Below, one piece after another: positions 40,364 to 52,685 of a stretch of 64,000 nt of DNA (the stretch's first letter is position 1; each line of letters opens with the position of its first letter). Below the pieces are notes generated by a model that did not search any database, was not told where the DNA came from, and was given only the letters and a program-made list of their open reading frames with translations. Made by a program: the position numbers and the translations under genes. The DNA is from Escherichia coli (lineage in GTDB: Bacteria; Pseudomonadota; Gammaproteobacteria; Enterobacterales; Enterobacteriaceae), in NCBI RefSeq assembly GCF_013315695.1, contig NZ_CP054353.1; one strand, 5' to 3'.

Positions 40364-41134
40364 ATGACAACACAATCCCACCATGACCACGTAGAAAAGC
40401 AGTTTAGCTCGCAGGCCAGTGAGTATTTAACCAGTACCGTACATGCATCCGGGCGAGATTTACAGCGCCTGGCGGTGCGTCTGGCTGATTATCCTGATGC
40501 AAGTGTACTTGATATGGGCTGCGGAGCAGGGCATGCCAGCTTTGTCGCTGCGCAGAACGTGAGCGCGGTGGTGGCGTATGACTTATCTGCCCAAATGCTG
40601 GATGTCGTGGCACAAGCTGCCGAAGCCCGGCAACTGAAAAATATCACCACCCGCCAGGGTTATGCCGAAAGTCTGCCATTTGCCGATAACGCATTTGATA
40701 TTGTTATCAGCCGTTATTCTGCCCATCACTGGCATGATGTTGGTGCAGCACTGCGTGAAGTGAATCGGGTATTGGAACCCGGCGGTAGGCTGATTGTGAT
40801 GGACGTAATGTCTCCGGGTCATCCAGTGCGCGACATCTGGTTACAGACGGTAGAAGCATTACGCGATACCTCTCACGTACGAAACTACGCCAGCGGTGAG
40901 TGGTTGAAGTTAATCAATGAAGCCAATCTGATAGTTGATAATTTAATTACAGATAAGTTACCGCTGGAATTTTCTTCATGGGTAGCGAGAATGCGTACGC
41001 CAGAAGCGTTAGTAGACGCTATTCGCATTTACCAACAGAGCGCATCGACAGAGGTGAAAACGTATTTTGCCTTGCAGAATGATGGCTCTTTCACCAGTGA
41101 TATCATCATGCTAGAAGCACATAAAGCGGCATAA
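40364..41134 (+). CDS. yafE: SAM-dependent methyltransferase (UbiE/COQ5-like)
   Basis: 256-aa ORF with motif I VLDMGCGAGHAS; the true start may be downstream. Confidence 0.8.
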   Translation: MTTQSHHDHVEKQFSSQASEYLTSTVHASGRDLQRLAVRLADYPDASVLDMGCGAGHASFVAAQNVSAVVAYDLSAQMLDVVAQAAEARQLKNITTRQGYAESLPFADNAFDIVISRYSAHHWHDVGAALREVNRVLEPGGRLIVMDVMSPGHPVRDIWLQTVEALRDTSHVRNYASGEWLKLINEANLIVDNLITDKLPLEFSSWVARMRTPEALVDAIRIYQQSASTEVKTYFALQNDGSFTSDIIMLEAHKAA

Positions 41135-41142
41135 ATAAAAAA

Positions 41143-41169
41143 GGCACCGGGGGAATCGGTGCCTTTTTT
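41143..41169. terminator. Bidirectional terminator between the convergent yafE and mltD
   Basis: ggcaccg / cggtgcc stem flanked by an A-run upstream and a T-run downstream. Confidence 0.7.
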
Positions 41170-41182
41170 ATTATCTGGTTTG

Positions 41183-49576: not shown

Positions 49577-49815
49577 AACGAAAAGCCCCTTACTTGTAGG
49601 AGGTCTGACCACTTGTGATGATATGGTTGTAGTGGATGTAAAAACATTTAGCAATACGTTTACAATATAATTACAACAAAGCTCACATTGTTGCTGTTTT
49701 TATCCGCACTTCAGGTCAAAAAGTCCTGGTCATAGCACCTGCCCGTACTTCTCGCTTTTGGCGGTATCCGGTACACTGCATTTTGTCTATTACATTTATG
49801 CTGAAGGATATCCTC

Positions 49816-50394
49816 ATGTACCAGGATCTTATTCGTAACGAACTGAACGAAGCGGCGGAAACGCTGGCTAATTTTTTAAAAGATGACGCCAATATTCACG
49901 CCATTCAGCGCGCGGCGGTCCTGTTAGCAGACAGCTTTAAAGGCGGTGGCAAAGTGCTTTCTTGCGGCAACGGCGGCTCCCATTGCGACGCTATGCACTT
50001 TGCCGAAGAGTTGACCGGTCGCTACCGTGAAAACCGTCCGGGCTACCCGGCGATTGCCATTTCTGACGTCAGCCATATTTCCTGCGTCGGTAACGATTTT
50101 GGTTTCAATGATATTTTCTCCCGTTACGTTGAAGCGGTAGGTCGCGAAGGCGATGTACTGCTGGGGATCTCCACCTCCGGTAACTCTGCAAACGTGATCA
50201 AAGCGATCGCGGCGGCGCGTGAGAAGGGGATGAAAGTGATCACCCTGACCGGTAAAGACGGCGGCAAAATGGCTGGCACGGCGGATATCGAAATTCGCGT
50301 ACCGCACTTTGGTTATGCCGACCGCATTCAGGAGATCCACATTAAAGTGATCCATATCCTGATCCAGTTAATTGAAAAAGAGATGGTTAAGTAA
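49816..50394 (+). CDS. gmhA: Sedoheptulose 7-phosphate isomerase
   Basis: 192 aa from [17 protein letters not shown]; SIS domain. Confidence 0.95.
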
Positions 50395-50509
50395 GGTCTT
50401 TTCTCCCTTTCAGGGAGAGGGCCGGGGTGAGGGTAACAGCCTGCACCTTTTTACTTTTTAATCAATCTTCGCCGGGGGCCATGCGCTCCCGCTGTTGTGG
50501 AGGTTACCC

Positions 50510-51277
50510 ATGTGCGAATTGCTCGGGATGAGCGCCAACGTCCCTACCGATATCTGCTTTAGTTTCACCGGACTTGTACAGCGTGGTGGTGGAACCGGGC
50601 CACATAAAGATGGCTGGGGCATTACCTTTTACGAAGGTAAAGGCTGTCGCACATTTAAAGATCCGCAACCCAGCTTTAATTCCCCCATCGCCAAACTTGT
50701 CCAGGACTACCCGATAAAATCCTGTTCGGTTGTGGCTCATATTCGCCAGGCCAATCGGGGCGAGGTGGCGCTGGAAAATACTCACCCGTTTACCCGCGAG
50801 TTATGGGGACGTAACTGGACTTATGCCCATAACGGGCAACTGACGGGGTACAAATCACTGGAAACCGGCAACTTCCGCCCGGTCGGTGAAACCGACAGCG
50901 AAAAAGCCTTCTGCTGGCTCCTGCATAAATTAACGCAGCGTTACCCGCGCACACCGGGCAATATGGCGGCAGTGTTTAAATATATCGCCTCACTGGCGGA
51001 TGAACTGCGGCAGAAGGGCGTTTTCAACATGCTGCTTTCTGACGGACGCTATGTAATGGCGTATTGCTCGACTAATTTACACTGGATCACCCGCCGCGCG
51101 CCGTTTGGCGTGGCAACGTTGCTGGATCAGGATGTGGAAATCGACTTCAGCTCGCAGACCACACCGAATGATGTGGTCACGGTGATTGCAACACAGCCGC
51201 TGACGGGCAATGAAACCTGGCAAAAGATTATGCCAGGCGAATGGCGCTTATTTTGCCTCGGGGAGCGTGTAGTTTGA
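50510..51277 (+). CDS. yafJ: Class II glutamine amidotransferase-like protein
   Basis: 255 aa beginning MCELLG (N-terminal nucleophile Cys2). Confidence 0.88.
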
Positions 51278-51988
51278 TGCCAGCTGTGGCTGCACAACTT
51301 CGTGGCTTAACGGCTTGCTGACCACGTAACGGCCATTGACCACAGAAACGGTCGGTGGCTTACGGGTTTGCTCAAAGTAGTCGTAACCTGGCTTCAGCTG
51401 CTCCCAGAAGTCCTTAAAGTTGGAATATTTATGGCGCTTCATATTGGCGTCGGTCATGCGGAACGGGTAAATACTCACTTGCACGCTCGGCTGACCAAAA
51501 ACCAGCGCACCAGTAACGAACTGGAAGATCTCATCAATACCCTGATTGGTCATCGCGTAGCAGCCGATGGAAACACAATCGCCGTGGATCATCAGATATT
51601 TCCCTTCATAACCATGCGCACGGTCATAGGCATTGGGGAATCCAATATTAATCGCTTTGTAGTAACGGCTGTCTGGTTTTAACTGATTACGCTGGACGCT
51701 ATAAAACCCTTCCGGGCTTTTGAAATCGCCCTGACGCTGTTTTGGCCCTAAGCCGCCGGAATATTTACAGATTTTATAGCTGTCGAGCAGTTGATATTGC
51801 TCGCCCATTTTGACGTAGAGATCGAGCGTACGTTCTTCCTTGAAGATCTGGATGTAGACAGGGGATCCCATCAACTGCTGCTTATACTCTTTGCTCACTG
51901 GCGTGGTCGAGCTACTGCTGCCCAGCAAACCGGCAAACGAAACGCACGGGATCAACAACATCGCAAGAATTAATGCGATTTTACGCAT
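51248..51988 (-). CDS. yafK: L,D-transpeptidase-fold periplasmic protein
   Basis: 246-aa ORF with signal peptide; convergent with and overlapping yafJ. Confidence 0.88.
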
Positions 51989-52143: not shown

Positions 52144-52422
52144 TTACCCAAAGAGCGCCGCGTGAGTTCCAGTTCTCTCAAATCGTAAAAGTTTATCGGT
52201 AAGTTTGTAAATCAGGATCCAGTCCGGTTCGACATGAGCATCGCGATAACCTTTCCATGAACCTTGCAGCGGGTGGTCTTTATAAACAGCTGGAAGCAGT
52301 AAAGTATTATTGATAAGAAGCGTCATAAGATATTTCAATTTATTCATATCCTTATGACGCTTTTGTGCAAGTTTTACATCCTTTGAAAATTGTCCCGAGT
52401 ATTCAATATCCCTTTGAATCAT
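52144..52422 (-). CDS. yafQ: Type II toxin YafQ (RelE/ParE-fold mRNA interferase)
   Basis: 92-aa ORF immediately downstream of dinJ. Confidence 0.92.
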   Translation of the reverse strand: MIQRDIEYSGQFSKDVKLAQKRHKDMNKLKYLMTLLINNTLLLPAVYKDHPLQGSWKGYRDAHVEPDWILIYKLTDKLLRFERTGTHAALFG

Positions 52423-52424
52423 AT

Positions 52425-52685
52425 TTAAATTCCTAATTTATCAAATAAATCATCGGCGTCTTTGGCCTTATGAACACCAACGCCAGCTTCGCTGTTTTTG
52501 ATTGATTGAATAGTTAATTGATTAGGCTCGCGTAAATCAAACGGCAATGCCTTTTCACGCGCGACCTTTGTGAGGGTTATGCGAACCAGGTCAGAGATGG
52601 TCAGCCCCATCCCGGCCAGTACGTCCGCCGCCTGATTCTTCAGATCTTCATCGATTCGGGCGCGAACAAACGCGTTAGCAGCCAT
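52425..52685 (-). CDS. dinJ: Type II antitoxin DinJ
   Basis: 86-aa ORF (MAANAFVRARIDEDLKNQA...), 2 bp upstream of yafQ. Confidence 0.92.
   Translation of the reverse strand: MAANAFVRARIDEDLKNQAADVLAGMGLTISDLVRITLTKVAREKALPFDLREPNQLTIQSIKNSEAGVGVHKAKDADDLFDKLGI

Follow-up and report, generated by a model that had tools for sequence, protein, structure and literature searches.

The stretch of Escherichia coli DNA analysed here (64,000 nt, hereafter the window) carries gmhA (lpcA) and yafJ one after the other on the plus strand, and the intergenic region between them occupies exactly positions 50395-50509 (115 nt), with the yafJ ATG at 50510. Reading 3′ from the gmhA TAA, this region is composed of GGTC, TTTT, CTCCC, TTTCA, GGGAGAGGG, CCG, GGGTGAGGG, TAACAGCCTGCACC, TTTTTACTTTTT and AATCAA, followed by TCTTCGCCGGGGGCCATGCGCTCCCGCTGTTGTGGAGGTTACCC and then by the yafJ start codon. 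The features discussed below are as follows.

49816-50394, plus strand: gmhA (lpcA) coding sequence, from the open reading frame list and the lpcA/gmhA annotation of identical RefSeq loci
50392-50394, plus strand: gmhA stop codon TAA
50399-50447, plus strand: copy of BoxC (PIT, TMECO type B, HPG2), 49 nt, as identified by in-register comparison with 15 other copies
50402-50418, plus strand: hairpin 1, TCTCCCT/TTC/AGGGAGA, perfect 7-bp stem
50413-50433, plus strand: G-rich core GGGAGAGGG-CCG-GGGTGAGGG, exact match to HPG2, blocks 2 and 3 of the proposed triplex
50424-50448, plus strand: hairpin 2, GGGUG-A-GGGU/AACA/GCCU-G-CACCU, G-block 3 paired with the BoxC tail
50434-50447, plus strand: conserved BoxC tail TAACAGCCTGCACC, family pattern NAACAGSCNGCAC, with tails of type A and type B lining up
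50448-50459, plus strand: T-tract TTTTTACTTTTT directly 3′ of hairpin 2, local flank outside the repeat
50467-50502, plus strand: two-tier yafJ leader stem-loop, from the consensus of 28 different sequences spread over several genera
50510-51277, plus strand: yafJ coding sequence, class II glutamine amidotransferase, from the open reading frame list and RefSeq annotation

An earlier note, made from the letters alone, had described a perfect 7-bp stem directly behind gmhA followed by an unusual G-rich tract and a run of T, and all of these are present as quoted: TCTCCCT at 50402-50408, the loop TTC at 50409-50411, AGGGAGA at 50412-50418, GGGCCGGGGTGAGGGTAAC at 50419-50437 and TTTTTACTTTTT at 50448-50459. 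A perfect 7-bp stem by itself is unremarkable within 64 kb, while the 35-nt motif that includes it occurs once in the window against zero occurrences expected from shuffles. The suggestion that 50395-50509 is structured agrees with the predicted RNA fold of the plus strand (-52.1 kcal/mol, z = -2.3 relative to shuffles), the minus strand being unremarkable in this respect (z = +0.2), and the region comprises one more structured part absent from that description, the conserved hairpin at 50467-50502. Scanning of 49600-51400 against Rfam at E <= 10 gave no matches in 50395-50509, and a promoter scan found no promoter-like sites in 49600-51400. Further along the window, two small adjacent open reading frames of 92 and 86 aa lie on the minus strand at 52144-52685 after dpaA (yafK); by K-12 gene order and protein sequences we take this pair to be the yafQ-dinJ toxin-antitoxin system.

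The G-rich extension, considered unusual for a simple terminator and perhaps part of a small repeat family, does belong to one. By alignment, the element 50399-50447 proves to be a copy of BoxC (PIT, TMECO type B, HPG2) without one TCTCCC unit, and alignment and copy number together bear out the repeat-family guess. Copies used for comparison, taken from K-12 and E. coli W (hrpB-mrcB, yagA-yagE, xynR-argF, ygfF-gcvP, lldD-trmL, alx-sstT, ilvC-ppiC and rhaD-rhaA), align with it in register over the whole element, not just over the G-core. The family is built of a T-rich leader, the C-block CTCCCTC(T/G)CCC, a loop of 3-5 nt, GGGAGAGGG, a CCG or TTA loop, GGGTGAGGG and NAACAGSCNGCAC; the window copy correspondingly consists of T-rich leader, shortened C-block, loop, G-block 2, CCG loop, G-block 3 (invariant across BoxC copies) and tail, and it is intergenic and multi-copy as other members are. 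It shares the TTTCA loop with the copies at rhaD-rhaA and ygfF-gcvP; outside the G-core the window reads TTTT-CTCCC-TTTCA...TAACAGCCTGCACC where rhaD-rhaA has TTTTT-CTCCCTCGCCC-TTTCA...TGACAGCCCGCATG, and further copies resemble these. The 21-nt core GGGAGAGGGCCGGGGTGAGGG (50413-50433) coincides with the published HPG2 motif at 21 of 21 positions, contains GGGNGAGGG twice separated by a 3-nt loop, whose CCG places it in type B / HPG2, and fits the quadruplex pattern G3+N1-7 x4 with all four G-tracts intact. The puzzling extension is thereby accounted for as BoxC G-blocks 2 and 3, the second half forming the 5′ arm of hairpin 2 and so abutting the T-tract. We know of no transposase associated with BoxC.

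What sets the window copy apart from standard BoxC is the C-block: one TCTCCC is missing, the complete 9-nt CCCTCNCCC is unmatched with only TCTCCC(T) remaining in the 7-bp stem, and hairpin 1 is shorter; at full length the element would measure 55 nt, to be compared with the 56 bp quoted for BoxC. Judged by its sequence, it is BoxC by descent and, under the strict TMECO motif, a truncated derivative. The family has been named repeatedly: BoxC (Bergler, 1992; Bachellier et al.), PIT element (Hoyne and Maher, 2000, 2002), and HPG1 and HPG2 (Kaplan et al., 2016; PMC5100583), HPG2 being dGGGAGAGGGCCGGGGTGAGGG. BoxC is tabulated with 56 bp and 32 copies in K-12 (PMC2267715), and Holder et al. (2015; PMC4666352) counted 23 TMECO copies in K-12, motifs formerly named BoxC or PIT, with the consensus CCCTCNCCC-N3-6-GGGNGAGGG-N3-GGGNGAGGG, in which a CCG loop defines type B. 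The accessible portions of the supplements to that work, where 63 TMECO loci are catalogued, do not name gmhA, lpcA or yafJ (PMC4666352), and a literature search on GGGTGAGGG returned telomere papers only. To this known repeat family the window adds a new, locus-specific member.

The genome-wide search that had been proposed for the motif was carried out by blastn with the 66-nt element as query against 5,426 complete E. coli genomes. It returned 31,448 places in 4,592 of the 5,426 genomes (median 7 per genome), so that we deal with a repeat family lying between coding sequences, as this copy does, and not with a chance match; uniqueness in the genome, which would have spoken against a repeat, is not what is found. 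The idea of a new RNA or unique sequence was ruled out, the element being a BoxC repeat copy. Places covering at least 80% of the query exist in only 379 genomes, and BoxC occupies the gmhA-yafJ site in about 379 of 5,426, being absent there in about 93%. Three allele classes are distinguished at this site: BoxC as in the window, with an intergenic region of 115 nt; one REP, with about 104 nt, in O157:H7, strain 755 and a divergent Escherichia representative (L028); and three REPs arranged as a BIME, with 205 nt, in K-12 and the majority. Their boundaries are invariant, ...GTTAAGTAAG upstream and AATCAATCTTCGCC... downstream.

Full-length BoxC (GGTCTTTTCTCCCTCTCCCTTTCA...) occupies the gmhA-yafJ site in MS1685, VCSW7, N3 and 06-00048, and compared both with these and with the rhaD-rhaA copy (TTTTTCTCCCTCGCCCTTTCA...) the window copy misses one TCTCCC of the TCTCCC-TCTCCC tandem. 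Carriers are polymorphic for this 6-bp indel, for C/A at 50444 and for T/G at 50451, in at least six combinations, a pattern that indicates recurrent slippage or recombination. The TCTCCC-TCTCCC tandem in BoxC (50402-50407; loci L077 and L079-L081) behaves as a slippage-prone mini-repeat, and its one-unit and two-unit states are each observed on several flanking haplotypes. Exact matches to the window 66-mer are confined to 48 records. Positions 40001-64000 are 100% identical to strains MSB1_4I and MS 21-1, and the source lineage appears uncommon because only 14 records match this segment at 99% identity or more. RefSeq genomes identical to it have flhA, flhB and fliF annotated near fadE and mltD, presumably the lateral-flagella (Flag-2) cluster, of which, we assume, only remnants persist in K-12. 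It was also observed that type B and type A BoxC often form head-to-head inverted pairs with one tail in common (hrpB-mrcB, ygfF-gcvP and alx-sstT), as the literature describes, while the copy behind gmhA is a solo type B element, unlike the paired K-12 copies.

As RNA, the stretch 50395-50460 is predicted to fold into two adjacent hairpins (-29.1 kcal/mol). Hairpin 1, in which the C-block pairs with G-block 2, is predicted to be extended by G-U pairs and an outer GGUCU/AGGCC helix to 50395-50423, and owing to the 6-bp deletion it is weaker than in the full-length element, both as RNA (-15.3 vs -18.9 kcal/mol) and as DNA (-5.9 vs -11.0). Hairpin 2 has a predicted energy of -11.7 kcal/mol (z = -2.15), and weaker equivalents are predicted in most solo BoxC copies. 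The T-tract behind it, with 10 T in 12 positions and the T/G polymorphism at 50451, follows no other BoxC copy examined; this and the absence of BoxC from the locus in K-12 distinguish the window copy from the others.

The earlier note had allowed for a gmhA terminator, and in the predicted fold hairpin 2 does have the anatomy of an intrinsic one because UUUUUACUUUUU adjoins it: a stable GC-rich hairpin with a 4-nt loop (-11.7 kcal/mol) stands 3′ of a gene and is followed by this run, the arrangement sitting 54 nt past the gmhA stop. A custom scan for hairpins with T-tracts on both strands of the 64 kb gave only 24 sites including this one, and several of the 24 resemble ordinary compact terminators. 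A strict terminator scan did not call the gmhA-yafJ site, probably due to the bulge in hairpin 2. Elsewhere in the window a perfect hairpin AAGGCACCGGGGGAATCGGTGCCTT (approximately 41117-41175) with T-runs on both strands looks like a bidirectional intrinsic terminator. The gmhA site differs from intrinsic terminators in that its stem is a bulged one made of repeat sequence and its U-tract is interrupted, both being polymorphic among carriers: TTTTT to TTTGT (50451) and GCACC to GAACC (50444) are common, most carriers having TTTGTACTTTTT and some having GAACC for GCACC in the hairpin 2 arm. In view of these TTTGTACTTTTT and GAACC variants and of the mere 48 exact records, the terminator-like features are not conserved. 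The structural model leaves the reading of the site as a gmhA terminator plausible. Hoyne and Maher (2002), as cited by Holder et al. (PMC4666352), found neither promoter nor terminator activity in PIT elements.

Transcript 3′-end data, whose inspection had been suggested, were taken from the K-12 Term-seq study of Adams et al. (2021; PMC7815308, Supplementary file 1) as curated dominant 3′ ends, each listed sequence covering, by a coordinate check, the 50 nt before the 3′ end, the end itself and the 10 nt after it. The K-12 gmhA-yafJ region, which is a REP allele, has no curated 3′ end in this list, and dominant RNA 3′ ends do fall at six BoxC copies elsewhere, in both orientations of the element (164636+, 632098+, 847200-, 3781065+, 3959467- and 4231270-). 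The end at 847200(-) has up to 130,459 reads and was found in three conditions, the one at 3781065(+) is classed as the primary lldD 3′ end (PMC7815308), and that at 3959467(-) lies in the ppiC 3′ UTR. In five of the six copies the end is 3-4 nt past hairpin 1, and in the remaining one 10 nt past it. A rough estimate, based on about 1,000 curated ends per condition over 4.6 Mb and ignoring expression and intergenic bias, puts chance coincidence well below one site. BoxC is not mentioned in the main text of that study (PMC7815308). By analogy, the pattern resembles that of a stable hairpin serving as a barrier to 3′-to-5′ exonucleases in the manner of REP, and it is compatible with the reported absence of terminator activity in PIT elements; since such activity was reported to be lacking, the K-12 ends may be exonuclease-trimmed products and not termination sites. 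Protection of 3′ ends by an RNA G-quadruplex was considered and dropped, as the ends lie 3-4 nt past hairpin 1 and not past G-block 3.

REPs offer a parallel. They are GC-rich 3′ UTR hairpins reportedly found by Newbury et al. in 1987 to block 3′-to-5′ exonucleases and thereby to set mRNA 3′ ends, and, as Liang, Rudd and Deutscher are said to have reported in 2015, terminating ribosomes can be disturbed by a REP that lies no more than about 15 nt from a stop codon. The likeness to REP and BIME is twofold: REPs hold exactly the same position in other strains (one in O157:H7, three in K-12), and BoxC hairpin 1, too, is associated with RNA 3′ ends in Term-seq data. The differences concern sequence and architecture, as the window copy is unrelated to REP and contains neither of the core sequences GCCGGATG and GCCTGATG, and BoxC combines two hairpins with a G-rich tract. 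The REP core palindrome (GCCGGATAAGGCG... or GCCTGATGCGACGC...) is not found in the window intergenic region and is present at the site in K-12, U15A, O157:H7 and strain 755. ERIC / IRU elements likewise share the point of insertion past the gmhA stop, in several Citrobacter species, and differ from the BoxC copy in being much longer (intergenic regions of 149-284 nt) and unrelated in sequence; we take these Citrobacter inserts to be ERIC from their CCCCAGTCAC...CTCCTGGGGATT arms.

How far this exchange of repeats extends beyond E. coli was followed with a degenerate gmhA 3′-end pattern in species-representative genomes, which yielded 61 loci; E. albertii, E. fergusonii and E. marmotae are not among them, and the ancestral state within Escherichia is represented by one divergent 'E. 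coli' representative only (L028, with a single REP). An empty spacer of 45-48 nt occurs in Enterobacter, Lelliottia, Leclercia, Silvania, Pseudenterobacter, Huaxiibacter and some Citrobacter, and at the same point other Citrobacter and Salmonella have an ERIC-like element, a pair of REPs or a different repeat, so that the intergenic region ranges from 45 to 304 nt depending on the insert. In particular, ERIC-like sequences follow the gmhA stop in Citrobacter loci L016, L023, L024, L033 and L063, another repeat of approximately 100 nt in L042, L061, L062 and L019, and REP pairs in L021, L036, L044, L051, L065 and L071. BoxC was found after gmhA in none of the 61 species-representative loci. Since varied repeat families stand behind the gmhA stop across genera, the site is a general insertion hotspot, and, on the distribution among the genomes compared, BoxC behind gmhA is a lineage-specific state of E. 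coli.

Downstream of the variable part lies what has been retained. In insert-free species the spacer corresponds in sequence to window positions 50467-50509, and its consensus fold is the two-tier yafJ leader stem: in the predicted outer helix CUUCGC (50467-50472) pairs with GUGGAG (50497-50502), occluding the Shine-Dalgarno sequence GGAGG (50499-50503), and the GC-rich inner helix (50473-50479 with 50485-50491) closes a loop that varies. Not one of the 13 pairs is broken in any of the 28 sequences, and three pairs show compensatory changes, including the series G-C, G-U, A-U within Escherichia. The stem has no Rfam match. In some Citrobacter a different hairpin, ACGCCTT...AAGGCGT, was observed in its place. 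The 5′ arm begins 3 nt past the gmhA stop in insert-free species, which, on this structural model, suggests translational coupling of yafJ to gmhA, as a ribosome terminating on gmhA would open the stem. BoxC or REP inserts put the gmhA stop 60-160 nt away from the stem (BoxC, about 70 nt), and given that a ribosome finishing gmhA would reach the stem in insert-free species, an insert probably loosens the coupling.

From these observations we consider it likely that a BoxC copy devoid of one TCTCCC unit resides in the gmhA hotspot and serves there as an RNA-level 3′-end module for gmhA, both parts being taken jointly. Hairpin 1 (50402-50418 with its extensions) would present a stable barrier fixing or protecting the mRNA 3′ end a few nucleotides downstream, and hairpin 2 together with UUUUUACUUUUU would, in the window allele, reduce read-through into yafJ. 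Since the K-12 ends fall just past hairpin 1, gmhA transcripts of the window lineage would be expected to end at about 50421-50426, and also within 50450-50458 if hairpin 2 terminates transcription. The insert would probably loosen gmhA-yafJ translational coupling as well, by means of the stop-to-stem distance.

Less probable, at rather under an even chance, is that the copy is neutral or selfish, having landed or recombined in a permissive spot, with hairpins and T-tract devoid of any selected role. Such a view is encouraged by the apparent interchangeability of what fills the site between lineages (REP, BIME, ERIC-like, other or nothing), by the at least six variant combinations, in which neither stem nor T-tract looks constrained, and by literature reporting neither promoter nor terminator activity nor a functional class among neighbouring genes (PMC4666352). 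It has to face the coincidence, at six loci of K-12, of RNA 3′ ends with hairpin 1 of BoxC, from which at least a physical effect on transcripts follows wherever a copy is transcribed; because gmhA is a gene of lipopolysaccharide-core biosynthesis, the window copy is expected to be transcribed.

It seems unlikely that the element matters primarily as DNA, adopting a non-B structure (intrastrand purine-motif triplex or G-quadruplex) that stalls polymerases, promotes rearrangement and makes the site a source of instability. Circular dichroism and NMR do show TMECO oligonucleotides folding into a triplex in vitro, and a comparison of 56 E. coli strains found higher variability at TMECO loci (PMC4666352); an HPG2 oligonucleotide gives a G4-type circular dichroism spectrum in K+ and a hairpin-type one in Li+/Mg2+ (PMC5100583), the core fits G3+N1-7 x4, and gmhA-yafJ varies between strains, existing in three allele classes and showing a recurrent 6-bp indel within the element. 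However, the duplex prevails once the opposite strand is supplied, DMS footprinting in vivo did not reveal a triplex (PMC5100583, PMC4666352), and with only 6 of the 9 C-block bases kept the full nine-triplet triplex is impossible in the window copy, where any triplex would be shortened. Other repeat families use the site in genera whose gmhA-yafJ region lacks BoxC, its variability hence does not require BoxC, and the 6-bp indel is simply explained by TCTCCC-TCTCCC slippage.

Scarcely credible is a plain locus-specific intrinsic gmhA terminator unrelated to any repeat, for although a hairpin and then a T-run do stand 54 nt past the stop, it is refuted by a median of 7 copies per genome, 21/21 core identity and absence from the locus in about 93% of genomes. 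Just as improbable is that the region encodes an independent small RNA, or a riboswitch-like element controlling yafJ in cis, a reading which the better-than-shuffled folding of the plus strand (z = -2.3) might recommend and against which speak the lack of an Rfam match at E = 10 and of a promoter-like site in 49600-51400, together with the fact that the left 50 nt are a mobile repeat missing in most strains.

Returning to the RNA-level reading, a bolder form of it, which we regard as doubtful when its two parts are held together, would make BoxC elements in general RNA 3′-end modules like REP and not DNA devices, and would have BoxC plus the U-tract co-opted as a terminator at this locus. Were it true, the terminator would split an ancestral gmhA-yafJ bicistron and uncouple yafJ translation, and competition of an RNA G-quadruplex (50413-50433) with hairpin 2 could make read-through conditional.

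An odd G-rich 'terminator' is thereby given the name of a repeat family described since 1992. This family is mostly discussed in terms of DNA triplex and quadruplex, and the K-12 3′ ends point to an RNA-level, REP-like role. At gmhA, inserts displace a conserved stem pairing with the yafJ Shine-Dalgarno sequence from the gmhA stop, and the hotspot offers a natural allele series for testing the effects of repeats on a downstream gene.
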